Assembly: GCF_024521635.1 (NCBI RefSeq)
Contig: NW_026250408.1
Span: forward strand, 1,054,001-1,118,000
DNA: 64,000 nt
Direction: 5' to 3'
Source of the DNA: Tricharina praecox
Taxonomy: Eukaryota
The notes beneath the pieces were generated by a model. That model was not told where the DNA came from. It searched no databases and worked only from the letters and a program-made list of their open reading frames with translations. Shown in pieces: positions 1 to 34,655 of this stretch. Position 1 is the first letter of the stretch; every line of letters starts with the position of its first letter. The translations under genes and the position numbers were made by a program.

Positions 1-253
1 ACCATGACAGAGCATCAAAACCCGCTCGAGCAGAGCAGAACGTAAATGGTATTTCATGAACCATAGCACTTCATAGTAGCATCATGAAGAGCTGCTCGAC
101 CGAGCAGAACGTACATAACCTATATCCGGGCCAAACTTAACATTCAGAAAGAAAGAAAGAAAGAAAAAATCACCCCGAACAGACATTTCGCTTGTAATAA
201 TAAAACCAAAAAAAAACCCAAAAAAAAGAAGACATCCATCCATCCATCCATCA

Positions 254-3200
254 TTAAGCGCTTCCTTGTATATAAGGCTTGTTCTCGATGGTAACGCTCT
301 TGGTCTACGGATTTTATCAGCGACTGTATAGCGAGAAGAGGGGTGAGAGAGAAACTTACCATGTGATTGACCTTGTAGACACCCACTAAACGAGCCGCCA
401 GCTCGAACATGTTATTCCTGAGCGAGATGACGATGAACTGCGCGTTCTTCGTCCTCTCCTTGATGTAGCTAGCGACGATACTGACGTTCCTGAAGTCGAG
501 GGCCGCATCGATCTCGTCCATGACGTACAGTGGCGTGGGCTTGTAGTGGTGCAGGGCAAAGACGAGCGCGAGCGAAGAAAGCGTCTTCTCACCACCCGAG
601 AGATTCGAGATGTTCTTCCAGCTCTTCTTGGGCGGCATGACGGAAAAGAGGATGCCCTCCGAGAACGGGTCCAGCGAGTCGACGAGCTCGAGCTCGGCGT
701 TGCCTCCCATCGTAATCATCTTGTACATCTCTTTGAGTCGGATGGAGATCATATTAAATCCCTCCATGAACTCTTCGAGCCGTCGCTTGCGCAAGTCGTC
801 GAGGCGACGCTTGACGCCATCGCGGTTGTTGATCGCCGCCTGGAGATCGACGTTGCGAACTGTGTATTCTTCCACGCGACGGCGGTATTCGCTAAGCACC
901 GCAAGATCAATGTTGACGTCTTTGAGCTTCTCCTCGAGCACAGCGATCTTGATTTTCATCTTGTCCTTATCCAGGTCTTCCAACTCGTCCTCGGTGAGGA
1001 CTGGGAGTGTTTCCGGTTCGTCGTCGCCTGTCCCATCACTTCCACCGGTCAAGTCCCTTGTCTGATGAAGCCTAAGCTTGCTGAGCTTTTCCTGCCAGTG
1101 GGAAGATCGCCTCTGGTGGTCACTCAGCACTTTCTGGTGCTCTTCGAGTTTGTTCTTCATTTCGATTTCGGCAGCCCTGGTCTTGTTGAGACCCGCCATT
1201 TTCTCATCGTAGACCTCCTTCATCGCGGCGAGCTCATCCTTCTTGTTTTCGAGGAACTAACGAGTAAAGTTAGCCGCAATTGGGCAAGATGCTTGGGTTT
1301 GAGACTTACACCCTGCGCCTCAGTAGCCTTCTCGTTAGACTCTCGCGCTGACTTCTCAAGCTCCTTCATATCCTCCTTCAACTCCTCAAGCTCCAAGACG
1401 ATAGCTTCCAGTTCCTCATCACCCTTAGTAACAATCTTCTCGGCCTTCTTCTTGGTCTTCTCCGACTTGCTTTTCGCCAGTTCCGCTTGTGAGATCTGCT
1501 CGTTGAGGGTTTCGAGCTGTTCCCGGAGGCCATCGACCTTGGCCTTCTGGCTCCGCAACTGGATACCACCGACCTCCATAATCTTGTGTTGGAGGACCTG
1601 GATCTCGCCCTCGACCTCAGCGGTTTCCTCCTGGAGCTGTTCGATTTCACTTTCAAAGCCCTTGATCTTCTTCTCCAACCCGGCGATAAGACTCTTGTCG
1701 GTCGACGACGTGCTTTTCTGCTGGGTTATATTTTTAATCCTCTGTTCGGCATCGGCCATATGTTTCGCCGAAGACGAGATCTCAAGTTGTATTTTGGACA
1801 TGGTGACATCCAGTTCCGGGACCCGCTCCGTGATTTCGCGCAGCTTCGATTGGAGAGCTCTCAGCTCCTCCTGGAACAACGCGTATTCGTTTTCTTGGAC
1901 ATCGCGATCCTGCTCCAGCTTCTGCATCGCCTCCTTCGACATGTGCGACGAGAGTTTGTTCGACATGCGTCCCTTCGAAACGGTTTTACCACCTCCGCTC
2001 ATGGTACCCGCTTTCTCGAAGAGCTCGCCGCTCAAAGTTACTACCCTGTGGCGCTTGGCGCCGAATGCGACACGGTTGGCCTGCTGCAGGTCGTCGGCAA
2101 CCAATGTGTCCTGAAGGACCGAGTAGAATGCGGGCGCAAATCCGGGGTTCCTCGGCTGGAGCAGATCAAACAATCGAGGTACACCTTCCGGGGTTTGGAT
2201 CTTGGACATGTCTCGCTGAGGTAGTTTGTCCAAGCAGATGAAGTTCGCACGTCCCAGATCGTTTTTGCGCAGGTAATCAATACACGCCTGGCCGATTTCC
2301 ACTGTGTCAACAACTAAGTGCTCCAAACTAGGGCAAGCCGTGGACACCGCGATGTCGTACTTGGGGTCGATTGTTCCCAGATTCCCGAGACGACCGTGAA
2401 AACCGTCGATCCTTCCAGACTCACTTAACCGCATGAGCCCGGTCAGAACTTTACTTTGCGACTGAGCGGAAGACATGGATGATCTCGCTTCATCCGCCTT
2501 GACTCTGACGGCGGAGAGATTGGCTTTCAACTGCGGTTCCTTGCGTGCCATTTTCTCGATTTCGGCTTGCACCTTCAGGGCCTCCTTTGCCAGAGCGGCC
2601 TTTTCCTTTTGACACTCCTTGAGCTCGGCCTCTTTGGTTTGTCTGGCTTCCTCAATCGTTCCAATCCGGGCCTGGGCTTCTTCGAGCTCAACCTTTTTCT
2701 CATTTGCCCTGCCGTACAGAATTTCCAGTTCGCTTTGAGCAATGGCGATTTCCGACCGCTTTTTGTTGATCTTCTCGTTCCAGGGCTCCAAGGACTTCTG
2801 TTTCGCGGCAATCTCGTCGGAAAAGCCTTGCGTCTTCTCCTTCAACGCGTCTCGAATCTTTGCGAGCTCCGCCTCTTCGCCCTTGAGATTCTCTCTGATC
2901 TCTGCCGCCTCCACGCCGAATTGCTCGATATCCGATAGGGACCGCTCGATCAGAGACGTCGCCTCGGAAGCTTGTAGTCTGCTGGTTTGAATCGACTTCT
3001 GCAGCTTTTTCTCTTTCTGGGCGAGGAACTTTTCCTTCTCTTGGAACTTGACTTTCTCCTTGTCGGTTTTGGATGTCTCGTGAAGGATAGCCTGGGTTTG
3101 TTTCTCGATTTCCTGCGGATAATAAGTACCAAATATCACAAACAAAATCGCATTGCAAGATCATTACCTCAATCTCCTTGACACCAGCCTTATATTCCCT

Positions 3201-5171
3201 GTCCAGCTTTTTAATCTGATCCTCGGAGCCTCGATGATTCTCTTGCTCGGTATCCAACTCCGCTTGAAATTGCGTCTATCCAAAAAAAAAATCAGCCGGA
3301 CACGCTCTCCGTTGGCTCGGGGCAATACGTACAATCATTTCCGACGTGACCCGGATATTTTTATCGCACTCCTGCATATACAGCTGGAAAAGCTGAGCGT
3401 GCTCTATGGCAAGCTCATTTTCCATACGTATGAATTCCAGAGCAGCTTCCTTCTTCGGCTCCAAGCTATTTCTTTCTGTTTCGACGATCTTGACGCGAGA
3501 GCTCTTCTCCACACAGACATCGTTCAACTCCTCCACTTCGGTTATCGACTCTTCGATCGGCTGCTTGTATTTACTCGTTCCGATGATGTCCTCGAGATAC
3601 TCCAACAAACCCTCATCGCTGTCGTTAGTCGCCTTGGGCTTCATCTGTGCGATCGATTCGACTTCACCCTGCAGGATCAAGAACCGCTTGTGGTCCAGAT
3701 CGACGCCGCGACCGCGCAGCAGGGACGTCACTGTGGTGTAGTCGCTGGTCTTGCCGTTGATATAATATTTGTTTGTATTATTCTTGAGCGCGCGTCTCGA
3801 GACGACAATTTGGGAGTCCTCGATGACCTCGTACTTTCCATCTGGCAGATCCAGCACCTCCTGGAAGAACACCTGGACCTCGCAGAACTCCAGATTCGGG
3901 AATGCCTCGGAACTGTGGATCAGCGCCGACAACTTGCCCTGTCGCATCTTGCTGGCGCGGAATCCAAACACGAATAGTAGGGAGTCGATGACATTCGACT
4001 TCCCCGAACCGTTAGGCCCGACAACCGACGTGAAGGACGGGTGGAATGGGCCCACCATCCGCTCGCCGGCATACGACTTGAAGTTGTTCATCATCAGGTG
4101 TGTGATGACGAGACGCTTCTTCGGCCCCGTGTCCTCCGGCTGCTGAGAGAGTAACGTGTTCCCCCGGTTCTTGAGGACGATCGGCTCGATGTTCTGCGTG
4201 GCTTGTGGGTTTTGCGTGGAATGTGAGGATTGCGGCCGACTGCCGGGGGGGGCGCCCAGCCGTAGAGACCGTGCAGGGGACAGTTGCGCGGCGACGGGGG
4301 AGTCCTGGAAGTGCAAGGTATGCGTAGCTGAGGGAGTTACCACCGCCGCTGCTGCTGCTGCTGTATTGGGGGTTTGGCCCGCTCTCGGAGTACCTCCACG
4401 CTGCTGCTGTGGGGTTCTCGGTGGCTGCGAGCTTCTCAGTAGCTGTGGGGTACTCTGCGGCAGCAGCGACGTCCGTTGCGCCCGCGGCGTCTCCGGCGTA
4501 GGTGTAGCGTCCCGATCTCCAGGAGTAGGAGTAGCCGACGGCTCTCTCGCAGCAGGAGCCGGTGTCGCCGAAGCATCGCGTCCAGGCGCCGGAGTGACCT
4601 CTCTCTCGCTCCCAGCTTCGGACGACGGTTGCGCAGACTCTGTAGGCTCCGTCGGCGCGGCAGAGACCCGCTTCCTACGCGTAGCGCGTGCAGGAGTAGG
4701 TGGTGCCGGCTCCTCCGCCTCTTCCTCAGACGAATCCGGGACCCGCTGCCTACGCGCCGCCGCCCGTGCAGGAGCAGGTGCCGGCTCCTCCGCCGCTTCC
4801 TCTGCTGAATCGGAGATCCGCTGTCTACGCGTAGCACGGCCTCCGCGGCCTCGCGCCGTGACTCTACTCGGTGGGATGCGTTCGCGGGCGCCGCGGCTCG
4901 TCCTACTCGCGGGGGCGGCGGAGGCCGGCGGCTGCGATGTTACTCTTCGTGATGCTCGGCGCGGCGTCGCTGCCACTGGCGTGTATTCTGCCTCGTCCTC
5001 ATCTTCCTCCTCATCCTCTTCCTCCTCGTCGTCGTCCTCTTCGTCATCTTCGTCCTTCGGCTGAGCCACCTCCTCCTCCTCCTCCTCCTCTTCCTCTTCC
5101 TCGGAGGACGACGATTCGATTATTTTCTGGCGGCGGGTAGGAACGCGGCGGGGTCTGGATGAAGCAGGCAT
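254..5171 (-). CDS. SMC4: Condensin SMC ATPase subunit Smc4/Cut3; 5 exons (5171-3333, 3275-3168, 3112-1310, 1256-360, 304-254)
   Basis: Walker A region NNFKSY...VVGPNGSGKSNVIDSLLFVFGFRASKMRQGKLS, hinge GFHGRLGNLG, C-terminal signature LSGGEKTLSSLALVFALHHYKPTPLYVMDEIDAALDFRNVSIVA; four GT-AG introns of 53-57 nt join the ORF pieces in frame to TAA at 254-256. Confidence 0.97.
4668..4840. repeat. 75-bp degenerate coding tandem repeat (about 2.3 units) in the Smc4 N-terminal tail
   Basis: ccgct(t/g)(c/t)ctacgc recurs at 4668, 4743 and 4818; it encodes RRQRISDSAEEAAEEPAPAPARAAA / RRQRVPDSSEEEAEEPAPPTPARAT / RRKRVS. Confidence 0.85.
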
Positions 5172-5669
5172 TGTGGGCGGAATATACGGAATCTGTCAAA
5201 GCGGTAACGAGCAGTAATTACGTACGTAATTGAATCGTTGGTAGGTTGTTGATGGATTGGTGACTTGCAGGCCAAAGAGAGAGCGAGAGAGAGAGGGTGG
5301 AACAAAAACAAACTGACACACGGGAAAAACGTGGGGCACCCAACCCCATACGATCTTGGCGGCAACGATCGCGAGGTCCCGTGACTACCAGGCACGACAA
5401 AGCACTCAGAAATACGGATATCTAAAATCACGGTAGTTTTCTCTTCACAACCTCATGCTCGTTATGAAGACCCATCGAATTTACTTTTAATGCTCTCCTA
5501 GAGTCATTGCCCGTCATTAACAATACACCAGACCAAACCCACCAAATAACGCCACAAGAAAGACAGACCCCGAATAGCCACCACCCATATATAACAAGTA
5601 CATGATATCATCCAGATACAAATCAACGAACAAGCACTGCAAACCAAAAAAGCACAGATAAACAGGAAA

Positions 5670-7294
5670 TCACATAACCACACATCCGGCATCAGCACTG
5701 ATCGGCCCCGTGATGGCCGTGCGCAATTGCACATTCCTCCACTGTTCCTGGACGACCTCGTTCTCATTTTCTTTCTGCTTCTCCTTCGCCTCCTTTGGAA
5801 AATACAGCTTCAGGAAATTCTGCAGTCCATGATCCAGATTCGTGGCGTCGGCACTTAGCACCACGTCGCCGCGGCACATGGGACAGAACCGTTTCGACTC
5901 GCGCTGGAGCTTCACGAGACATCGGACGCAGAAGACGTGCGAGCACGAGAGCCGCACGGGCTTCATCGAGATGGATTGGCAGATCGGACAGAGGTAGTCG
6001 TCGAGTTGCGGTAGGATCGAGAGGAGCTTGGAGGACATGGTGAAGCAGATGGCTTTGGCCATGTGCGAGGCGAGAAAAGGGTTCGAGGCTACGAACGTCG
6101 GGAATAAATCGCGGGCGCCGAGAGCGGTGCGTTTATCGAATTCTGTTGGACCAGATTAGTCCAAGAAAAGCTATGACAACAGTCGGATGGAGAATATGAA
6201 CTCTTGAGAATCTTCCGCATGGCTAGCTTGTTGATGTCTTGGAACCGCATCACCCTCAGGACCTCCATATTCACGGCGATGAAGCGGGAATACAGTACCC
6301 CGCTCTCCCGACGTTTGAATTGCTTCCTGAGTCCCAACCGGCTCACCTCGTTGGAAAACTTCTCCAGGCGTACCTGCGCTTCGTCCGCGTCGCGCTCCTT
6401 GTGCCTCTCAATCTCGAGGTTCGAGATGAAGATGCCCATATCCAGGTACATTCGGAAGATCTCGCGCCACGGGTACAGATCCGACTGTTTGAGGGCTAGG
6501 GATCTCGGTGCTGCTACCGCTGTAACGGAATCTCCAAGAACGATGATCTCGTTCTGGATGATCTTTGCGGCGCGGGTTTGGACTATGTCGAGCGCCGATA
6601 GCTCGGACGTGAGGATGTGAAAGAACTCGGCATCGCTACTGAGCGGGATTTCTATGGTCGACACCGGTGTATCGGTGTCGATGTCGCCGTCGGGTTTCAC
6701 CGAAGACGGCAGTGTCTCGGACGGATCCGAACCCTCGGATTCGGGACTACTGGTACCGCTGTCTTCGGAGACTGTCGACGCTCTCCTCGGCAGCGGTAGT
6801 CCGCGTTGTTTCAGCAGCCGTTGCAAGGACTTTTTCGTCTCCTCCGTCAATCCCAAATCCAACAGTAGATCGTCATGGCCACGAATCGTCAATACCAGCC
6901 TGGGCTGGAAACTCTGCAGATTGCCTGTACCGAGCGAACCACGGTTAGCGTCCACACAAGAACCCCGCGATCCCCCCCCCCCACCACCACCATCACCCCC
7001 GCTCGTGTCCCTGCGTCCCTGCGCGCTGCCGTTCGAGAAGTGGAGGTCCGCACCATCAAACATGTACTGCAGCATCGGCCCGTGACCACCGTTGCCGCCA
7101 TCACCACAGCCCTGGTCCCTGCACTCGCAAATAAGGGATTTGAGCGTCTCGACGCTCAGTCCCAGCTCGTCGAGCTCGCGCTGTAGACGCTTGATGCACT
7201 TCTTGAGCTGGCGGTACTGGATAGCGGCGGCCTGCCACTCGGGCGGAAAATTCTCGCTCGACAGCGTTTCGTTAAAGGTGTGGGCGAACTTCAT
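5670..7294 (-). CDS. SPX-domain + C3HC4 RING E3 ubiquitin ligase (S. pombe Pqr1 / plant NLA-like); introns 7053-6925 (probable) and 6201-6143
   Basis: N-terminal SPX start MKFAHTF...YRQLKKCIK; splicing 6201-6143 restores the SPX lysine cluster KILKKFDKRT; C-terminal RING CPIC...CSHVFCVRC...CPMCR. Confidence 0.92.
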
Positions 7295-7618
7295 CGTCGG
7301 TTACGGTGGTAATGGTGATGGTTTCGCTGGGTCCCGGCGTGCTGTTTGCTGGGCCTTCTCAATATATGCGGTACAACGTTGGATGATACCCGGGAACGAT
7401 AGCCGGTCTCGAGCTCGAGGGGGGGTGGCGGTGACGGCGGTGGTAATGGTGGCAATGACGGCGACGGTGACTGGAGATGTGTCTCTTCGAAGGAAGAACG
7501 GGATAGCTATCTTAGCGTATAGTGTAGAAAGGCTTCTTTCGCAGAAAGCAAGAGCCAGACGGAGCCATTCCGACGACGAACGGCCGGTCTTTTGTAGTAC
7601 TCGGTAGTCATCAACGAC

Positions 7619-7668: not shown

Positions 7669-9534
7669 GTGTCCACCGTGCCGCCCACCCAGTTTTTTTC
7701 CTCGCTTCCAAACCACCACCACCCCAGCCCGCATCGGGCAATCGGGCACACGACACATGGGCTCCTCACCCCACCACCACCACCATGTGCCTGATAAGTG
7801 GGTTCTGGGAATCCTGTCACGCGCTTCCGAACTCCAAAAACGCTGCGTGCCGGGTATACATTCCGACCGATCCATTGGCTGGGTCGCTGGGATGGCGGCC
7901 CAATTGCGATCGGCCAGTGACAGTGGCAGTGACTATCAAAGTGACGGTGACGTTGATCACCGACCGACCAAACCTCGAGTTGGGGCGCAGAGGGCAGGGC
8001 TTCTCGGAGTAGGCAAGAGTAGGTAGGCTTTCAAGGCGCCAGGCAGCTTCCTCGAGTGCCGTACCGTACCGCACCGGACCGTACGGTAGTTGCGCGGAAA
8101 TAGGAATGGCCACGATGGGTGGGTGGGTGGCAGCAACACCGGGCGAGGCATTTCCCCGCTCCTCTGTATGCACCGTAGCATACGGACTTGGGTATGCGTA
8201 AAAGGTGTGCGCCCGGAAAAAGCGCGCAAAGATGATGTTCGCGGTTAGCCAACCAACCAACCAACACCGTACTCCCTCGCTACTCTATGTAGAGTTCTTG
8301 CGAATCCCGACTGCAGAGAGGGTCCAGACGTCAAACCGACCACGCCTTCACGTTGCTGCGGTCCTGCGGATCACCACTCTATGTGCTCTGGTTACCACTT
8401 GGCCGGGTGCTAGATGGCTTCAAGTATTCGGACGCGCTATGGGAGTGTCTCGACTCTCCTGGTGTGACTGCCCCTACATATGACTAGGACTCTAGAGTAG
8501 AGTGTCCGCATACCTACTCCCGAAGCCATCTAGTGAGCACATCTACAGGATAGCCACGGAAAATCCGGCCCAGGCCGCTCTCCCGGAGACCTAGCAATTC
8601 CTCGGGGAGGTGATATTCAGGGACATCCGATGGAACACCACCAGTGAGCACCACCACCACCACCACCACCACCACCACCACCACCACCACAGCGTAAGCG
8701 AGTCCCTCTCACACCAGGTATATAGAGTGATAGAGTAGAGGAGTATTTCAACCAAACGCATCCCCAGTTTCCCTCCGTATGTAGAACACCGGAATCCACA
8801 AAGCTCGAATGCCTACAGGTATGCAAACCCCCCCGTAGGATATGTAGGCGAGGCTACCGAACGTCGGCCAGGACTCCGTCAGACTGGGCCAATGGGGCGG
8901 GCCAATGGGGCTGAGCAAAGTCAACTTTTAGGTCAGCGGACAGTCCTCCGTGCGACTCTACCCAGCGCTATCCCAAGAATAGTGGCTTGCTCTTGCCCTG
9001 AATTGCTTTTGTAGACGCCGGAGGGTAACTCGAGTACTGATGGGACTGGACTGCGCGGGGCATTATACAATTTTACATACGGTAGGATATATCCGGATAT
9101 GCATTGTGCAACCCTTATCCTTGGCGCAAAGCCTTCCCCTCATCAGCAGTTTCGCAGAGTCCGGAATCTCCTGTTCGAGGCTTCGAGCAAAGATTCACAA
9201 TTTCACATCTCAGAAATTCTAGCGCGCTAAGGAAAACTCCGGATACTGGTGAGCGGAGTTTCCGCCACGAGTGTGTAGAGACCTTCTGAGGGGCAAGTCT
9301 TGGAAATTAGTGGGCTCGAAAAGGCGGGGCAGAATTGTGGCAGGGCAACGTCCAGACTCAGCAAGGATCGGGGGGCACATATCTGACTGACACGATAGCG
9401 TCGTGCAAACTCTGCATCAGCCTGGCAAGGCTCGCGTTCGCAACTTCGTGTGCGATGTCGGAGAAGCCCGGAGTCAGCCTAGCACCGTACATAGCACGGT
9501 CTTATGACGGGACGGAAGAGAAGAAGAGAAGAGA

Positions 9535-9779
9535 AGAAGAGGAGGAGGCTCGGCTCTGTCTGGACTCTGGACCTGCGAGGGGGTTGAGTGGCCACTCCGC
9601 TACATCCTGCCACGTGCAGCGAAGATAGAACTCAAGTAACAGCTTCCACGATCGTGAAGAGAAGAGGAGGAGGAGGCTCGGCTCTGTCTGGACCTACGGC
9701 CGGGGGGTTGAGTGGCCAATCCGCTACCTACCACGTGCAGCGAAGACATAACAAGTAACAGCTTCTAGAATCGTGAAGA
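9535..9779. repeat. Non-coding ~120-125-bp tandem duplication (9535-9660 / 9661-9779)
   Basis: Both copies read gaagaggaggaggctcggctctgtctggac...gggggttgagtggcca.tccgctac...ccacgtgcagcgaaga...caagtaacagcttc...atcgtgaaga. Confidence 0.9.
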
Positions 9780-12105: not shown

Positions 12106-14506
12106 TTAGTCCTTCTTCAGTTGGTAACTGTTTCTGCACCGAACATCCCCACTTTGGAGATCCTCCACCTCCGCAGCGGTACCCTCCACCTCCGCAGCGC
12201 TATCCTCCACCTCCGCAGCGCCATTCTCCACATTCGAACATTGATTCTCGGCTTCCTTGAGCGCTATCTTCTCGGCGTAATTCTTCTCGGCATCCCAGGC
12301 CCAGGGACTTTTGAGGTTGAACAGGTACTCGATATCCTCGAGCGTGCACTGGTTCGTCTCCGGACAGAGAGCCCACACAATCGGCATGGTGGACAGACTG
12401 CAGCATGCAAAGACGACGAGAGTCCACGGACCGATTCTCTGGAACATTATCGGGCAGAGGAGGGTCAGCCAGCCGCTGCCGAGTGACCAGCCTATCACAC
12501 CGAAGGAGGCACCCTTCACGCGGATTGTGGTGGGGAAGATCTCGGTCTGGTAGATCCAGGGGACGCAGAGCTGTATTTCCCCGTTAGCTGGATGGTATTC
12601 CAGTGTATTTCCAGGAGGAGGGGGACTTACCCAGGTCGCACCGAATGAGAATGTGAAGAGGAAGATGCTGACGGTGGCGCCAATTCCCCATCTCGCTCCG
12701 CCACCGTCGTCCCTCATTTTCGAGCAGCCTCCTGCGGCAGCCATGAAGATTGCCTGCAGGACTGCTCCGACATGGAGGAACTTCCGGCGGCCGTATTGGT
12801 CGAGATAGAGCACGGGTATGAGGGTGCTAAGGCAATAGGTGATCTGGAAGTTGTTAATTGTTATTAGAGAGGTAGAAAGTGAGTATATAGACGGTTTACA
12901 TTGTTGATTCCAGAGATGAAGGTGGCGGTTTGAGCGGCGAATCCTGCGTTCCTGAACATCACGGGCGCATACACCGTGACACAAGCCACGCCAACCCACT
13001 CCTGAATGATCTGCAACCAGATGATGAGGTACACGCGCCTGGTGATATGCATGGACCCACCACCGGTTCCGGTGATCATCGTCCAGTAGTTCGTAGTAAC
13101 ACCAGGTCTGTGGCCCCAACGTTTTTCGTTGGCGACTGATTTGTTGATGGCAAGATACTCCGTCTCCACGTCATGGTAGTTGCGGCCGCGGATGCGGGAG
13201 AGGATAAACCGGGCTCGCTCGAATTTACCGTCCTTGATGAGCCAGCGAGGGGATTCGGGGAAGAAGAAGATCACAATGAGGAGAATGATCAGTGGGATGA
13301 TCTGGAAGGCGATCGGGAAGCGCCAGCGCCATTGGGAGTTGCCACCATCAATGAAGGAGAGCCCGTACTGCGCTGATGTTAGGTACGGGGTTGATGGTTT
13401 GTGGGAGGTGGTAGACTTACGGCGAGCCAGTATGCAATCACGACACCAAAAATGTTGGAGGTAAACTCAGTAGAGATCATCTGGCCACGGGACGAATGCT
13501 CACAAACTTCGGTAGTCTACACTCAGGTAAGCTTCGACGGCTCGCGTCCCCTCCCCCCGTGTACCGTACGTACATACCCAGACAGGAATAACCGCGCTCA
13601 GAACTCCAGTGCCAACACCATTGATGATGCGAGCGATGCACATCCAAGAGACGTTCTGGGCAGTGCATTGTAGGGCTGCACCCACAATTCCGATGACGGC
13701 TCCAAGGGCGACACCCTTTATGCGGCCATAATCGTCACCGACGATGCCTCCGAGAAAGCATCCAATCAAGGTGCCTGTTGCACTGGTCAGCACAGCGACA
13801 AGATGGGCAGGAAACGCGGTCTGCTTACTTACCAAAGTAGTAGATGGCAATTATACCACCTATGAAGGGCGCACGCACGTTAGTGTCGTTGAATATAGCG
13901 GGTCACCATGTGGGGGGGGGGGGGGGGGGGGACACACCTTCGAGGAGGCCGTTGGTACTCCGGGGCTCATCATTCTCATCGACATAACCAAAACCCATCA
14001 GCTTCACGTAATCTGCACTTCGAATTGAGCGTTGACTTCGCAAACCAAACCCGTGGTGAGGGCAAGAGGGACGTACGGTTTGAAGCATTGACACCTGCGA
14101 TCATTCCCTGGTCGTAGCCGAAGAAACAGAAGCTCCCGCAAGCGACGATTGTAATCCTGCGCACAATCTCAGCCCACCGCATACTTCTTCCAACATCTCC
14201 GTGGTGAGGTGCTTACCAAAACCGCAACCACCTACCCTGACAGTGGTGAACAACATTGAGTCGGTGGATACCTTGTTGTCCGTCAATAGGATCATCATAA
14301 TCGAACTCTTCTAGCCCTGACTTCGCCGTATCTGGTGAGGCTGGTAAGGTAGAGACTGGCGAATCAATGGTTGCTAGTGTAAGGACTGGTGGTGTAGAGA
14401 TTGGTGGTGTAGGAACTGGTGTAGAGGCCTCGATGGCGACGGGGTCTGAACTGTTATGAGAGGACTCGGAGTCGTTACGATTCCGCAGATCCGGCGTGGG
14501 CGACAT
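12106..14506 (-). CDS. MFS sugar porter (STL1-like sugar/polyol:H+ symporter clade); 9 exons (14506-14217, 14156-14077, 14012-13938, 13859-13833, 13774-13578, 13516-13421, 13367-12900, 12843-12631, 12570-12106)
   Basis: Motifs FFGYDQG, DDYGR, ARIINGVGTG, WRFP, PESPRWL, DQYGRR, PWIYQTEIFP...R.KG, CPETN; all eight GT-AG introns keep the frame; start context CACC-ATG-TC at 14506. Confidence 0.92.
12161..12223. repeat. 21-bp coding tandem repeat x3 in the transporter C-terminal tail (AAEVED/AAEVEG)
   Basis: cctccacctccgcagcg repeated three times at a 21-nt period. Confidence 0.9.
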
Positions 14507-15301
14507 GGTGAATACCAAATCTATGGTGGAAGATTGTGGACTATAAAGGAGGGAAAAGTGGAGGGCACCATCTTTACCTTGTATCCCCTCGAAATCTACT
14601 GCTGGAAGTTCACGATGAGAGTTTCACTATGTGGATTGAGTATCAAGATTCATAATCTTACTGGCTTCGGGCAGCTACTGCCGGCGTCACCGAAGGCACA
14701 GCATTGCCCTGCTTCAGTGAGGTACTACTTCTATGTACACTGAATATCTTCGACCTCCGCATTGCCATCTTCCGCTTTGTATGTACCGCTTCACGAGTAA
14801 TATATCCCCTCGACCTCACAAAGCGATATCGGCCATTCGACATGGTCCGGAAACCAAACACCCTTCCCCTAATGACTACACCCGCTACCCTATTTGGGAT
14901 AATCATTTTCGCTTCACTGTTGTCTAGAAATATGGACGAACTATCCCACAGAGCAATTAATGATGAGTACATATACCTAAATCTTTAATCTAGTTTTGGA
15001 AAGGTTCTAGAGAAACTCATCTTAGTGTCCGTAGAACGGGGTAAGAGTTGGGCTGACGTGTCGACGAGTAATCGATTATTCTGCTTTTTGTGCAGCAGTT
15101 TATTCCCCAGCGCGGACACGTGGGAAACTATAATGATGGGGGAGCATCATGGACCATGAATCAGAAATATTCCGTCCTCGAGGACCTCAACCAGACATTC
15201 GCACCGCACATCACTCAAAATCTTCGGCAGTCTCGCTCAAAATACAGCCATTACTCTATTAAAAATTTACACGCATATAATACCCGAAGGATGAAACCAC
15301 C

Positions 15302-16837
15302 TTAAGCCGACATTCCATTGAAAAAGCCCATTCCGCCACTCGCCAAACTCGCTGGGTGTTGCTTTTCCGCCGGCGCAGGCGCGGGCGTGGGCGTGGGCTT
15401 CTTTCCCGCCAGCTCGATGGGCCTTCCGTTGAACAGCGCATAGCTGTCGCCGACCTTGACATTGATCGACTCTTGCTCCGTGGTGTGCGGACTCAACTCC
15501 TCGATGTGGTGTTCCTGCCTCTCCTGGTTCGTCTCGCCGTTGTCGTTGCTCGTAGCCGAGAGCCGCGAATCCTTGTGGCACCCGGTGATAGGGTTGGGCT
15601 TGAACGGGTTGAGGCCGGTGTACTTTCTGCCGGGATCGCGCTTCGCGAGGCGCGAGTAGTCGTTGTCCCGGCTGCCGCGGAATGCCGGACGCGGCTTCTT
15701 GATCTTGGCTCCGTTGAATGGACTTCCGTTCACTTCCACCGGCTTGCCGTTGTAGATGACGAAGCTCTTGCCCTGGGGGAGCTCATCGAATGGAAGGCCC
15801 CTGGCTTCGTCCATCGTCTGCGAAGGGTGCGGAAGGATCGCTTCTTTCTCCTTCTGGGCGGGGACAGCGGCAGGCTCCTCCTCCTCCACCACCTCCACCT
15901 CCTCCTCTTGATACTCCTCCTCATCCTCGGCAGGGGGCGCCTGGGTCGTCTTGCGCCGGCCGCTAACGCTCGGCATGTCGAACATCCCAAACCCAAACTT
16001 GTTGCGGATATCGCCACGCTTTTGGAGAGAAGAAGTGGCGGGGCCGGTGAACTTGGCCACTTCCAGAGCCTTGTTGGTCACATCGCCATCGACGGCGACG
16101 GGCACGCCATTGCAGATCATGTAGCTGTTGCTATTCCATGGCTGGATCTTAGGTTTCTTAGGAACCTCGGGGGTAGCGGCGGCGGGAGCGGCACTTTCGG
16201 CAGCGGCGGCAGCGTCGGCGAGCTCGTCGACAGTCTCGGACTGCTCGTCAAAAGTACCCTTGGGGGCCGCGAGTCCGGTTCCGATAAGCTGAGAGTTCAT
16301 CGCCTCGCGGATAACGTTCTCGTCGGCATTCGGGTCATCGAGGAACTGCAGCCCGAGCTTCTTCTTCAGTAGACCGCGCTTCGTGAGCGTCCCAGGCTCC
16401 TCATCCTCATCCTCGGCGGGAGGAACGATGGGCCGTCCGGTCATGGGGTCTACTGGGATGCCGTTAAACAGTGCGACGGAGTTGCTGGCGGCCATGCGGG
16501 TTACGTCGGAGCGCGCGGCGCTCTCCTTTGCCTGCTTCTGGCCGGCTTGGCCGTACGAGGGCTCCTCCTGAGGGGCGGGAGGTTGGGCGACGACGGGAGG
16601 GGCGGGAGGAGTAGAAACAGGAGGAGGAGGGGGAGGGGGAGCCCGGTATACTGGCGGCGGAGGCGGGGGAGGGGGGTTCCATTTGTCGCCCAGCTTACCG
16701 GGTTTGAAGGGCTTGCAAGATTCACCCCAGCTGCCAAAGATGGGCTTGATGGCAGTGGGATCCGCCGAGGCGGAGGGAATGGGAGCGGCGAGTGCCGTAA
16801 ACGGGAGGGCCAGGAGGATGAGTTTGAGAGGCAGCAT
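15302..16837 (-). CDS. Secreted Pro/Glu-rich modular protein (511 aa, intronless) with three L-x-KR Kex2-type sites; unknown function
   Basis: Signal-peptide-like MLPLKLILLALPFTALAAP from ATG 16837 (context CACA-ATG); long uninterrupted ORF; LTKR, LQKR and LAKR separate four modules sharing an NG-x-P-[VI] motif. Confidence 0.85.
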   Translation of the reverse strand: MLPLKLILLALPFTALAAPIPSASADPTAIKPIFGSWGESCKPFKPGKLGDKWNPPPPPPPPVYRAPPPPPPPVSTPPAPPVVAQPPAPQEEPSYGQAGQKQAKESAARSDVTRMAASNSVALFNGIPVDPMTGRPIVPPAEDEDEEPGTLTKRGLLKKKLGLQFLDDPNADENVIREAMNSQLIGTGLAAPKGTFDEQSETVDELADAAAAAESAAPAAATPEVPKKPKIQPWNSNSYMICNGVPVAVDGDVTNKALEVAKFTGPATSSLQKRGDIRNKFGFGMFDMPSVSGRRKTTQAPPAEDEEEYQEEEVEVVEEEEPAAVPAQKEKEAILPHPSQTMDEARGLPFDELPQGKSFVIYNGKPVEVNGSPFNGAKIKKPRPAFRGSRDNDYSRLAKRDPGRKYTGLNPFKPNPITGCHKDSRLSATSNDNGETNQERQEHHIEELSPHTTEQESINVKVGDSYALFNGRPIELAGKKPTPTPAPAPAEKQHPASLASGGMGFFNGMSA

Positions 16838-17372: not shown

Positions 17373-18921
17373 TTAAAGTAGTGGTCTAGTCTCGACAACG
17401 GAACCTACCCGTCTCCTCTCCCCCTTGACTCTAACTCTCTCGATCCACCACCATCCGGCCAGATAGACAACGGCGCCAGCCCACCACGGTGTCCCTCTCC
17501 ACACGCCCCCTTGTAGCAGTCCCCATGACCAGAGACCTTGCAACATAGGCGCACTCGTCATCTCGCCGAAGCTTTCGACCACAGTTACGAGTGTGTACGC
17601 CCGGCCGATTTTTGCCGGATCTACCAGCGCAGTCAGAAGACTCAGCAGGCCCAATCGGATTCCAAAGCCTGCGGAGAATGTAATTGTCGAAACCACCAGC
17701 AGCGGGAATGTCCCGGCGAACCCAATCATGAGACTGCCGAGTGCCAGTAGCAACGACGAGTAGGATGCGGTGAGTGTGTCGATGCGACTTGGGCTAAGAG
17801 TGCGCCGCAGACGGCGGGTTATATATGGCAGCACGGATATAAAGATAGCAAGGTTAGTAAATGCAACGACCGAGAGAAGAAGACCAGCCTGTGGGTTGTC
17901 AGTGTTACGAGTACGAATGTACGGAGAGGGGACGGACGAACATTGGCGATTGGTAGCTCGAAACGCTTGGACGTATAAGGGATCAGAATTTGGAACACCA
18001 GCTCCTGTCTGACAGGACAGATGAAATGCCCAAGTAATACCAGCGCCGTCGATGCGTCAATATCCGCCACCACCTTCCATAAATCCTGCAGTAAGACGCG
18101 TAATGTCCATGGTTTCTTAGATCCTGCTGTTGTGGCCACACCATTATCCTCCCCAGTAGTCGTCTCCAACAACCCGGCGGTCGCCTCATCCCCTGACGTC
18201 CTCAGTTGTCCCTGAGCCCTTCTTCCTTTGATCATGCCCAGCACTGGGAAGCAACATCCCAACGACAGCAGTGCAATCACGAACGGCAGCATGATGCTCT
18301 TCTGCATCAACACGGAAGCCAACGGCAACGCCACCAGTTCCGTCACCAAAAATGCCGAGTAGGTATAGTAAAACCGCTCGCTCCTGCGCAAGCTGATCAG
18401 CATTATGCAGGCACCCGCTACCGACGATAACTGTCCAACGGTTGCCATATGTACCTCTCGGCGCCCGGCGAAACATCATTAACCAGCGCGAGTATCAAGA
18501 TGCCCGCCGTCCTCGGCCCGCCCCCCAGCACGAACGCCAATGCGCTCGCCCACACCCACTCGATCGCGATGTTGCTTCCAGGGTTACACACAAGCGCGAA
18601 CCACGCGATATGAATCGCGCACCCCACGAAATTCACAGCGAGGACCTTCTTCCTCCCGACCCTGTCTGCGAGCGCGCCCCACGGGATCGCAAGCGCCATC
18701 ACTGGTGTAGCCTCGAAGAACACCTGCCAGCCGCGGATGTACGCCAGCCGTCGCTGGACGTCGGGGATCTTGCATTCCGCCTCGGGTACGCTGGGGAGAC
18801 CGTAGTGCGTGCGGCAGATGGATGACTCGAGGAGTCGGATGCGCGGCGAGACGAGGAGGAGCTCGGAAAGCTCAGATAGTAGTAGAAGTAGCGCGGGGAG
18901 ATACGGGATCGGGAGCGGCAT
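17373..18921 (-). CDS. MFS efflux-type transporter (ustT/atnC-like family); exons 18921-18455, 18383-17942, 17888-17373
   Basis: PRIRLLESSICRTHY...ECKIPDVQRRLAYIRGWQ...ALAIPWGALADRVGRKKVL (motif A); multiple hydrophobic helices; both introns are GT-AG and keep the frame. Confidence 0.85.
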
Positions 18922-19529
18922 CGCAGAGCTGGAGCTCGAGAAATGGAGTTAGAGTTTAGCTACAGCAACGTCAGGGGCAGCGGGTATGTGCTCTAGTGCT
19001 GACCATCATGGCTTGGCGTAGATCCCTCACGAATGGCTTTTGCCCCGAGAATTACAGCTCGATCTAGGAAATGATAGGGACAAACTGAATGGATCTTCTC
19101 TGACGGATCATGATGTCTTGCTACCCAGTAGGCGCTTTATGCTCACCGAGTCACCGTTCCTCTATCGAGGAACCATTCGAGAATAGCACTCCGCACACTT
19201 TCTCACTCGCCGAATTCACATTCCTATACCACCTCTATTATTTTTCCTTTTAACTGTAGTTCTTGGTCTATTATTGGTTACAGCTCGGTAGGCACTATTC
19301 TGTCTTGCTCGACAGTTGCGATTCTACTTGGGGGTCAAATGACGGTACCTCGAGCTAATGTGATCTGGCGGAAGTTACTGAGGCATGGCCGTAGATGAAG
19401 GAAGGTGAATTCACCTGCATCGCGACCAGTGAGAATGACTACTAGTATAAGTGCATGTCTTTCCCCACGTGCTTGGAAACGCTACGACTCACAACGCCCA
19501 TTCAACCACACGGCCTCACTCGTATTTGG

Positions 19530-33605: not shown

Positions 33606-34655
33606 ATGCATCTCCTGCCCTTCCTCCTCCTCATCTCCAGCGTCATCGCCGCTCCCCGGCCGCAAAACAACAACAATGCCGCAGCCCTCACCCTCGACCC
33701 CGCCAACGTGCAAGCCGCCTCCGCAGCCACAGGTCAAGAAGGCGGCGACGATCCGGCCCAAGCCGACAGTCTCACGGACGATGCCAACTTCATAAACTTC
33801 TGCACGGGCAAGACGCCCACGAACGGAGCGCAGGTGACCGGTGGCTCGTGCAATGGCATCGTCATGGGGGACATCCCAGACCAGGGGAATATGGTCAGCA
33901 GCCTCATCACGTCCCCAACACCTGGCGAGGATATCGCCGCCGATACGTCATTCACAGTCAACGTGAAGGTGGACGGACTGGTCGCTGGAAGCTTTACTAG
34001 TACCTATTCCACACCTTCCCGACTCACTGGACAGGGACCGTAGTAGCTGACCCGTGTGATGTGAAGATCCGGAGACTACGTACTATGCTGCCCCGCAGGC
34101 CCTCAGCGGCGGAAAGATTGTCGGCCATACACACGTCACCATCCAGAAGCTGAGTGACGACTCGTTCGCGGTGGCTCAGCCACCAGACGCCGCAACGTTT
34201 GTGTTCTTTAAGGGGATCAACGATGCTGGTGATGGAAATGGGAATCTTGCGGCTACAGTGGACGAAGGATTGCCTGCTGTAAGTACATCAGATGTGAAGG
34301 TCGACGAACCATGCTAATGTGACAGGGCTTCTACCGTGTCTGCACAATGACCTCGAGCAGTAACCATCAGCCAGTGTTGATGCCCGTTGCGCAAAGAGGC
34401 GCACAGGACGATTGTCAGAAGTTTTCGGTTGGGCAGGGTCAAGCTGCCCAGGGTCAAGCTGCCCAAGGTCAAGCCGCCCAAGGTCAAAATGGGCAGAATC
34501 AAGCTGGGCAGAATCAAGCTGGGCAGAATCAAGGGCAGAATCAAGCTGGGCAGAATCAAGCTGGGCAGAATCAAGCTGGGCAGGGTCAAGCTGGGGGGAA
34601 CGGCGGGAACGGCGGGAATGGCGGTGGAAATAATGCAAACGCGAGGAAAGCTTGA
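33606..34655 (+). CDS. Secreted Cys-containing conserved fungal protein with a Q/N/G/A-rich repeat tail; exons 33606-33999, 34067-34278, 34326-34655
   Basis: Signal peptide MHLLPFLLLISSVIAAP; NFINFCTGKTPTNG...GSCNGIVMGDIP, YYAAPQ, GHTHVTIQ, FFKGIND, YRVCTMTSSSNHQPVLMPVAQRGAQDDC join in frame across two GT-AG introns. Confidence 0.88.
34431..34592 (+). repeat. 15-bp coding tandem repeats (GQAAQ x3, then GQNQA x~5)
   Basis: ggtcaagctgcccag and gggcagaatcaagct units are directly visible. Confidence 0.92.

Follow-up and report, generated by a model that had tools for sequence, protein, structure and literature searches.

The window analyzed here is a stretch of 64,000 nucleotides of fungal nuclear DNA from Tricharina praecox (contig NW_026250408.1 of the RefSeq assembly GCF_024521635.1, positions 1,054,001 to 1,118,000 of the forward strand), with a guanine-cytosine (GC) content of 0.49-0.59. 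On its minus strand, at 15302..16837, lies an open reading frame (ORF) of 511 codons and a stop codon, which is uninterrupted under the standard genetic code and encodes a protein of 511 amino acid (aa) residues. An intron is unnecessary, and the homologs are collinear with the protein over its full length. The start codon lies in the context cacaATG, and the GC contents of the first, second, and third codon positions (0.64/0.49/0.75) are a strong coding signature of this ORF. A tblastn search of the protein against the 64-kb window found one copy only of the gene. An earlier note, made from the DNA letters alone, had read the product as a secreted polyprotein whose four modules are separated by Kex2-type L-x-K-R sites and have an N-G-x-P motif in common, and had suggested a precursor resembling the Kex2-processed repeat proteins (KEPs) of fungi.

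The public gene model is shorter. The database model of the same gene (P0002, 397 aa) begins at Met115 (window position 16495) and not at Met1 (16837), and the signal peptide is lost. The gene model of the closest relative, P0003, likewise starts from the internal Met115 position and has no signal peptide. The 511-aa reading is the supported one because relatives of full length can be aligned with it beginning at the first Met and have a common N-terminal block, I-K-P-I-F-G-S-W-G...P-F-K-x-G...G-D-K-x-N-P. In the relative P0009, the N-terminus is short and unrelated. On the opposite strand, an antisense stop-free frame of 363 codons (15281-16369, plus strand) has no Pfam match and is probably a by-product of the coding strand, which is rich in GC at third codon positions.

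The layout of the protein is as follows, with all positions on the minus strand. A signal peptide is predicted at residues 1-17 (16787..16837) by hydropathy and inspection. Its hydrophobic core, with a nine-residue Kyte-Doolittle mean of about 2.2 over residues 1-9, is followed by A-L-A before the proposed cut, and the feature is kept in the homologs. A second hydrophobic stretch is absent past the N-terminus, where the highest 19-residue mean is 0.70. Next come six X-Pro/X-Ala dipeptides, AP, IP, SA, SA, DP, and TA (residues 18-29; 16751..16786), which the phase test described below marks as a putative Ste13-trimmed extension. Alignment and conservation define the N-terminal block IKPIFGSWG..PFKPGKLGDKWNP at residues 30-55 (16673..16750). 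The first copy of the core motif, MAASNSVALFNGIPVDPMTG, occupies residues 115-134 (16436..16495), scores 24.8 bits with the core hidden Markov model (HMM) introduced below, and is near-invariant in 11 sequences. Conservation counts mark three proposed Kex2 sites. Site 1, L-T-K-R (residues 151-154; 16376..16387), has an acidic stretch before it and is followed by the conserved block GLLKKKLGLQFLDDP (residues 155-169; 16331..16375), which aligns with the start of module 3. The second core copy (residues 233-253; 16079..16141; 35.5 bits) precedes site 2, L-Q-K-R (residues 271-274; 16016..16027), whose R274 is invariant. Module 3 starts after this KR with GDIRNKFGFGMFDMP (residues 275-289), a part of the conserved 19-aa segment GDIRNKFGFGMFDMPSVSG, which is followed by RRK (residues 275-296 in all; 15950..16015) and is a candidate short peptide with basic sites on both sides. 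The third core copy (residues 354-373; 15719..15778; 34.9 bits) holds F359, N363, and G364, which are invariant in 17 sequences. A basic block that is conserved in the alignments, KKPRPAFRG (residues 380-388; 15674..15700), lies between this core and site 3, L-A-K-R (residues 397-400; 15638..15649), whose R400 is invariant. After site 3 stands an Asp-Pro dipeptide (residues 401-402; 15632..15637), which may be a spacer removed by Ste13 according to the spacer phase, and then the conserved block GRKYTGLNPFKPNPITG (residues 403-419; 15581..15631), the proposed mature N-terminus of the fourth piece. The fourth core copy (residues 460-479; 15401..15460) scores 26.0 bits. The C-terminal GFFNGM (residues 504-509; 15311..15328) is weakly conserved and reads F-[DN]-G-M in relatives.

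Each KR (residues 153-154, 273-274, and 399-400) is placed between two cores, and the KR-delimited pieces are 154 (136 without the signal peptide), 120, 126, and 111 aa in length. The four 10-aa motifs are SVALFNGIPV (120-129), SYMICNGVPV (238-247), SFVIYNGKPV (358-367), and SYALFNGRPI (465-474), with the N-G beginning at residues 125, 243, 363, and 470. PFKP is found twice, at residues 43-46 and 411-414. The composition is of low complexity, rich in Pro, Ala, and Glu, and the predicted pieces are acidic, with isoelectric points of 4.5-6.2. No strong amphipathic helix was found in hydrophobic-moment windows. A cationic amphipathic, antimicrobial-like helix after the first KR was considered and rejected, as the GLLKKK segment lies outside the top windows. 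The predicted signal peptide, the sites LTKR, LQKR, and LAKR, the recurring motif, the GFFNGM end, and the PFKP of modules 1 and 4 are all present where the earlier note had placed them.

Are these motifs more frequent than the composition of the protein would give? Residues 19-511 were shuffled 100000 times. The three L-x-K-R stand against a shuffled mean of 0.066, and only 2 of the 100000 shuffles reached three. N-G-x-P-[VI] occurs four times against a mean of 0.022, and neither this count nor the four occurrences of the full S-x-x-[LI]-[FCY]-N-G-x-P-[VI] pattern was reached in any of the 100000 shuffles. The two PFKP were reached in 29 of 100000. Bare KR is not enriched, with three observed against a mean of 1.42 and 16134 of the 100000 shuffles reaching three. 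The signal is the L-x-K-R context together with its conservation, not the number of KR.

Relatives were sought in two ways. A word-indexed search found 11 related proteins, and phmmer, run exhaustively on 1.84 billion representatives, gave 16 with E ≤0.001. Since the match of one of them, P0022 (785 aa, E 3e-4), is spurious and runs through a poly-proline run only, there are 15 credible relatives, a family size that rests on a single-sequence search. Only two of the relatives carry a species name, and these are members of the Pyronemataceae: Wilcoxina mikolae CBS 423.85 and Pyronema omphalodes. The distant relatives P0013, P0015, P0016, and P0018-P0020 are 32-40% identical to the protein in the phmmer search. 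An alignment of 17 sequences was made without P0022, the two fragments P0017 and P0021, the truncated P0002, which is identical to the window protein, and P0011, which nearly duplicates P0010 and is truncated as well. On average, the columns of this alignment are 23% identical, and invariant columns number only 11. The two fragments, of 78 aa (P0017) and 110 aa (P0021), are 62-66% identical to parts of the window protein. P0021, in which the KR of site 1 is gone and the rest passes into unrelated sequence, may represent a degenerate gene copy, or a faulty gene prediction in a different genome.

As far as the searches reached, this is a small family without annotation. Pfam gave no family for the 511-aa protein and only sub-threshold rows for ten relatives (PAAR_motif, UvrA_inter, Pro-rich, and CDC45), which were dismissed as noise. 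The PAAR_motif (PF05488) row, which was seen in one of the ten relatives, covers residues 443-470 of P0004 with 18.9 bits, below the cut-off of 27 (E 0.0018); no match to this domain above the gathering score was found. A profile search found no sequence relative in the PDB, and its sole row, a WD repeat protein at E 0.11, was discarded since it matches via an acidic low-complexity stretch. In the protein Atlas, there was no relative, the feature scores were at most 0.79 and all belonged to unnamed clusters, and the structure matches had template-modelling (TM) scores of at most 0.18. The Atlas model of P0004 has a predicted TM score (pTM) of 0.13 and a mean predicted local distance difference test (pLDDT) value of 0.36. 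This low confidence is consistent with disorder, although such models are weak for small families. By the Pfam and PDB searches, the motif does not belong to any known domain.

The three proposed sites are kept down to about 30% identity. Site 1 is dibasic in all 15 sequences that cover it (12 KR and 3 RR), with Arg at P1 in 15/15 and Leu or Val at P4 in 12/15. Site 2 is dibasic in 16 of 17 sequences, the sole other one reading V-Q-P-R, and has Arg at P1 and Leu, Val, or Ile at P4 in all 17. At site 3, all 17 sequences are dibasic with Arg at P1, and 14 have Leu, Met, or Val at P4. R274 and R400 are among the 11 invariant columns, and K399 is nearly invariant. The Kex2 motif, as described in PMC8528282, has an invariant Arg at P1, prefers Lys and tolerates Pro at P2, leaves P3 free, and has Leu or another aliphatic residue at P4. 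As far as the alignment and that description go, the pattern that has been conserved here while the surrounding residues drift is this motif. The dibasic sites, whose loss in homologs had been named as evidence against cleavage, have thus been retained. Conservation is limited to islands of short length at residues 112-136, 156-168, 241-247, 272-296, 355-371, 377-388, 405-418, and 466-473, and the linkers between them are variable and acidic or proline-rich. Among the best conserved islands is the one that runs from Q-K-R through the 19-aa segment to R-R-K and has basic sites at both ends. All 11 closer relatives keep its RRK (294-296) unchanged; P0019 and P0020 lack it.

It is known that Ste13 recognizes repeated X-Ala/X-Pro dipeptides which follow a Kex2 site and in which X is frequently Asp or Glu, as described in PMC9769878 and PMC6339444. 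The spacer between the third KR and the following block, G-[RK]-[RK]-[YVIF]-x-x-x-N-P-F, is 2-8 residues in length and even-numbered in all 16 sequences in which this block is present (14 distinct spacers). It reads D-P in the window protein and, for example, EA-DA-EP-AA, EA-GA-EA, SA-EP-LA, or SA-IP-GA-DP in others, and in these spacers, too, Asp or Glu is frequent as X. Ala or Pro occupies 36 of 41 second positions and 7 of 41 first positions (Fisher 9e-11). When each distinct spacer is counted once, the figures are 31/35 and 5/35. P0009 has S-A-E-P inserted between the first KR and the conserved block G-L-L-K-K-K-L-G-L, and this is the only place other than site 3 where a Ste13-type spacer follows a Kex2 site. 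The region after the signal peptide has the same phase. Over the 12 residues that lead up to the I-K-P block, Ala or Pro is found at 48 of 48 in-phase positions and 20 of 48 out-of-phase positions of eight sequences, P0011 being excluded as a near-duplicate and the distant relatives without an exact I-K-P block being excluded as well. Because that region is rich in Ala and Pro and the sequences are kin, the p-values exaggerate how independent the observations are; even so, a phase that is kept through changes of length would be hard to explain without trimming dipeptide by dipeptide. This phase test, which compares Ala and Pro at even and odd spacer positions, is a cheap comparative signature and is applicable to other candidates.

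The relatedness of the four modules was assessed with hhalign. The alignment was cut at the three sites, only columns with a residue of the window protein were kept, and rows of fewer than 40 residues were dropped. Modules 2 and 3 match with a probability of 97.2% (E 3e-11) over 89 columns, from the start after the KR to the core, and modules 1 and 2 with 91% (E 1e-6) from the core through the L-x-K-R end. The other pairs match in the core only: modules 1 and 4 with 91% (E 9e-7), 3 and 4 with 87% (E 4.2e-6), 2 and 4 with 80% (E 1.5e-5), and 1 and 3 with 71% (E 3.7e-5). The identity between modules is 21-39%. A core HMM of 21 residues was trained on 60 core windows taken from 16 sequences, P0016 not being among them. 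In this held-out protein, it found exactly four core copies, with 23.5, 8.6, 8.4, and 24.6 bits, while the best of 300 shuffles scored 1.5 bits. The core common to the four modules is about 20 residues in length, G-[NDK]-S-[FY]-x-[LI]-[FY]-N-G-x-P-V-x-[VIL]-x-G. On these profile comparisons, the modules are judged to be true repeats, strongly diverged as had been proposed. It had also been noted that the starts after the KR resemble each other. This holds for modules 2 and 3, which have K-L-G-L-x-F in common there and are the only pair to align end to end; modules 1 and 4 have only P-F-K in common in that part.

Changes of architecture in the family fall at the proposed sites. P0012 lacks exactly the stretch from the first KR to the second KR and hence has one core fewer; this could be a clean deletion, or an artefact of the gene model or of the assembly on a 2-kb contig. 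At site 1 of P0016 stand five units in tandem, 25-34 aa in length, all of which end in L-E-K-[RH] or Q-K-R. The units hold an N-G-Q-[ILV]-[YF] center, and two more units are found further on (inserts at residues 118-267 and 544-600). By their layout, these short units are a classical KEP arrangement inside the scaffold of the family. They were not accepted as copies of the N-G-x-P core, since they get no score with the core HMM, and form a repeat type of their own. A resemblance to the PIR-type repeats of cell-wall proteins was dropped as well, as no Pfam match to PIR was found in the window protein (E up to 10) or in the ten relatives including P0016 (E up to 1). In P0019, seven copies of a unit P-L-x-L-V-x-D-H-A-A-G-x-G-P-[LF]-[DE] stand before site 2 (residues ~340-649). 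The inserts of P0016 and P0019 are lineage-specific.

Taken together, the sequences suggest, with a probability of roughly two in three, that the protein is a secretory pro-polyprotein processed by Kex2, Kex1, and Ste13, which has been seen so far only in Pezizomycete-type fungi. This reading is supported because the sites are kept in a fast-diverging protein, the dipeptides stay in the Ste13 phase, the modules are repeats, the modular evolution of the family takes place at the sites, and the conserved parts are short islands amid variable linkers, with a low-confidence Atlas model of P0004. In the proposed pathway, signal peptidase would cut after Ala17, and the kexin Kex2 would cut in the late Golgi after Arg154, Arg274, and Arg400. 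The carboxypeptidase Kex1 would then take off the C-terminal Lys-Arg, and the dipeptidyl aminopeptidase Ste13 would trim the X-Pro/X-Ala dipeptides of residues 18-29 and the Asp-Pro 401-402 that is exposed by the third cut. Four polypeptides of about 110-130 aa would result, which are related to each other, acidic, and largely disordered, each with one strand-turn-strand-like core, and they would be released into the wall or the medium. If the conserved RRK (294-296) were cut in addition, a peptide of 19 aa could be set free. I infer every proteolytic step from the yeast and fungal secretory pathway as it is presented in PMC9769878, PMC8528282, and PMC5784256, and likewise infer the disorder and the extracellular role of the precursor.

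Several points weigh against this pro-polyprotein reading. No experimental evidence of secretion or cleavage was found for the protein or any relative. The relatives are kin, so the counts of sites and spacers are not independent events, and P4 of site 1 is Asn in 3 of 15 sequences. Five of the 16 site-3 spacers hold one dipeptide other than X-A/X-P, namely an initial A-S (P0007 and P0008), V-V (P0012), or S-T (P0016), or an internal S-T (P0020), and P0018 has no recognizable block after site 3. The region after the signal peptide is generally rich in Ala and Pro, as the 20 of 48 out-of-phase positions indicate. Modules 1 and 4 match the others over a core of only ~20-30 residues, and the units inserted in P0016 do not match the core HMM, so they are not module copies. 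Pieces of more than 100 aa are unlike the documented KEP peptides, and the four cores could form a compact fold.

The surroundings of the gene were scanned with Pfam in 185 of the 186 stop-to-stop ORFs of at least 110 aa in the window; the remaining one, the precursor itself, was scanned separately. The neighbors are housekeeping genes, including an SMC gene (147-5195, minus strand) and a gene for a RING and SPX protein (5673-7300, minus strand). The precursor gene is flanked on the same strand by a sugar transporter gene (12109-13850) and, directly upstream, a major facilitator superfamily (MFS) transporter gene (17376-18948). The further Pfam matches in the window are FolB, F-box, ankyrin, C2H2, S27a, PAP2, PPR, PGAP2IP/Frag1, Utp6-like, and RF-1. 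Apart from the precursor, an ORF of 145 aa at 33606-34043 (plus strand) has a start resembling a signal peptide, and an ORF at 34347-34655 (plus strand) consists of G-Q-A-A-Q / G-Q-N-Q-A repeats, for which a 15-bp tandem repeat at 34430-34595 codes; the two may be one intron-split secreted repeat protein. At 9528-9779, two copies of a 128-bp unit stand in tandem with 84% matches, within a stretch (8.3-10.3 kb) that has no ORF of at least 110 aa.

Does the protein need to be cut at all? It might be a secreted, disordered wall or matrix protein that stays whole and binds wall polysaccharide or a partner protein with its basic motifs and N-G-x-P cores. The low-complexity composition rich in Pro, Ala, and Glu, the short conserved islands amid variable linkers, and the low-confidence Atlas model of P0004 would all suit such a protein, as would the conservation of KKPRPAFRG and RRK, which are unlikely or non-canonical Kex2 sites. 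An uncut protein, however, leaves unexplained why P4 is aliphatic while P3 is free, why the X-A/X-P spacers remain even in length, and why P0012 has lost a module from KR to KR and P0016 has gained insertions delimited by LEKR. I therefore regard an uncut wall protein as unlikely. The four cores, which look like strand-turn-strand elements, could alternatively pack as N-G-x-P hairpins into one small beta domain, with the KR falling by chance in disordered loops and the protein being uncut, or cut but held together. The PAAR_motif row of P0004 hints in this direction, but it is below the threshold and confined to one relative in ten, and the protein has no sequence relative in the PDB. The pTM and pLDDT values of the P0004 model and the structure matches with TM scores of at most 0.18 also speak against a single fold, as does P0012, which does without one of the four cores; such a domain seems very improbable.

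Other possibilities accept the cleavage but differ in the product. An alpha-type mating-pheromone precursor of Pezizomycetes, or a precursor of a short active peptide, for example the 19-aa segment enclosed by KR274 and RRK294-296, would combine a signal peptide, Kex2 sites, and Ste13 dipeptides, which is the processing signature of alpha-pheromones in PMC9769878. Pheromone genes are reported as not found in Pyronema confluens (PMC3778014), and the segment 275-296 is among the best conserved islands. On the other hand, there is no repeated short peptide with a Kex2 site on both sides, and the piece that follows the Ste13 spacer of site 3 is ~110 aa long and reaches the C-terminus. In module 2, the counterpart of the 19-aa segment lacks a basic stop downstream, and two distant relatives (P0019 and P0020) lack the RRK. 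A pheromone-type precursor is thus quite improbable, and the reported failure to find pheromone genes in P. confluens (PMC3778014) leaves a signalling role open with low probability. Also unlikely is a prohormone-style precursor, specific to cup fungi and truffles, that gives several distinct conserved bioactive peptides and not four equivalent pieces. Candidate products would be the 19-aa segment, the KLGL-type N-termini, and the Ste13-trimmed GRKY..NPF..NPITG end. If this were true, the peptides could be developmental or mating signals in fungi where classical pheromone precursor genes were not found, and the LEKR-delimited repeats inserted in relatives would show how the scaffold gives rise to new peptide families. 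Finally, the KEP-like layout and the MFS transporter gene directly upstream might recall a dikaritin- or ustiloxin-type precursor of a RiPP (a peptide synthesized ribosomally and modified post-translationally), with cores cyclized by neighboring tailoring enzymes. For DUF3328 (UstYa) genes, PMC7329392 gives an average distance of 3.09 genes; no DUF3328/UstYa, tyrosinase, P450, or methyltransferase was found in the 185 other ORFs of at least 110 aa in the window, a scan that leaves out shorter exons. In addition, the neighbors are housekeeping genes, and the units of 111-136 aa are not short cores. A RiPP cluster in the window is unlikely, and a RiPP precursor is the reading to which I would give hardly any weight.

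From fungal precursors processed by Kex2 come pheromones, repellents that coat the wall, a peptide toxin, and mycotoxins of the RiPP type. The published genome-wide surveys confined themselves to proteins with a prior prediction of secretion and, within these, to repeats that are short and almost identical. In full-text searches on Kex2-processed proteins and Pezizomycetes, two KEP surveys and follow-up work were found, and no description of the family reported here. The Le Marquer survey counts 7 KEPs in Pyronema (PMC6339444), and the Umemura survey lists 9 Pyronema accessions, without sequences (PMC7329392). By the criteria of the surveys, the Pyronema relative is not expected to be among the published KEPs. 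If the pro-polyprotein reading is correct, the Golgi machinery of Kex2, Kex1, and Ste13 may also process modules that are long and strongly diverged. Surveys can miss precursors of this kind because their units exceed the cut-offs of size and identity and because gene models lose the signal peptide; a secretome-based survey would skip the present gene because its public model starts at Met115. The family, which has been seen in early-branching filamentous ascomycetes, thus offers a testable entry to the secreted peptide biology of cup fungi and truffles.

How does the precursor compare with the known systems? The likeness to KEPs (PMC6339444 and PMC7329392) consists of the signal peptide, at least three related units, the dibasic L-x-K-R between the units, and the X-A/X-P dipeptides after a site, and the relative P0016 even has classic short repeats delimited by LEKR. 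The difference lies in the units of 111-136 aa, of which only about 20 aa are common to all, the rest being linker and module-specific blocks. The rule of Umemura (2020), as given in PMC7329392, demands at least three tandem repeats of at least 8 aa between Kex2 sites, none longer than 100 aa, with an identity above 0.6, while the present units are 136, 120, 126, and 111 aa long and 21-39% identical. The criteria of Le Marquer (2019) are closer to the case: a signal peptide is predicted by inspection, hhalign and the HMM find at least three repeats, and KEX2 sites, for which that survey accepts KR, RR, or KK, lie between them. That survey further asks that the repeated motif make up at least 15% of the protein (PMC6339444). 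The four HMM envelopes cover 81 of the 511 residues (~16%) and the strict 10-aa motif 40 of 511 (~8%), which is borderline. "KEP-like", the term proposed in the earlier note, therefore fits, while a strict KEP it is not, its units being larger than either published survey allows. From its sequence, the gene would best be described as encoding a long-module, diverged, KEP-like pro-polyprotein of cup fungi.

The alpha-type pheromone precursors of ascomycetes resemble the window protein in having X-A/X-P dipeptides for Ste13 after a Kex2 site (PMC9769878). Their pheromone cores are short, with sites on both sides, whereas a core of the window protein lies 25-30 residues before the next KR, and no short peptide is repeated with a Kex2 site and Ste13 dipeptides at each copy; by its layout, the window protein is not a pheromone precursor. 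Ece1p of Candida albicans, the candidalysin precursor, is a protein of 271 aa with seven KR motifs, from which pieces of ~30 aa are produced by Kex2p and then Kex1p (PMC5784256). A signal peptide followed by non-identical pieces separated by KR is common to both proteins. One piece of Ece1p is a hydrophobic, membrane-active toxin in that description, while the pieces of the window protein are acidic and hydrophilic. Rep1 of Ustilago maydis belongs to a basidiomycete, its peptides are shorter, and no sequence similarity to the window protein was found. As described in PMC3133707, it has a signal sequence and 12 repeats that yield 10 peptides of 34-53 aa and one of 229 aa, which form amyloid fibrils in the wall. 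It is likewise a repeat pre-pro-protein that is cut by KEX2 into wall-located polypeptides, and it is the closest known case in the size of its products. For the four polypeptides, a role at the wall or in signalling may be guessed by analogy with KEP products such as the Rep1 repellents.

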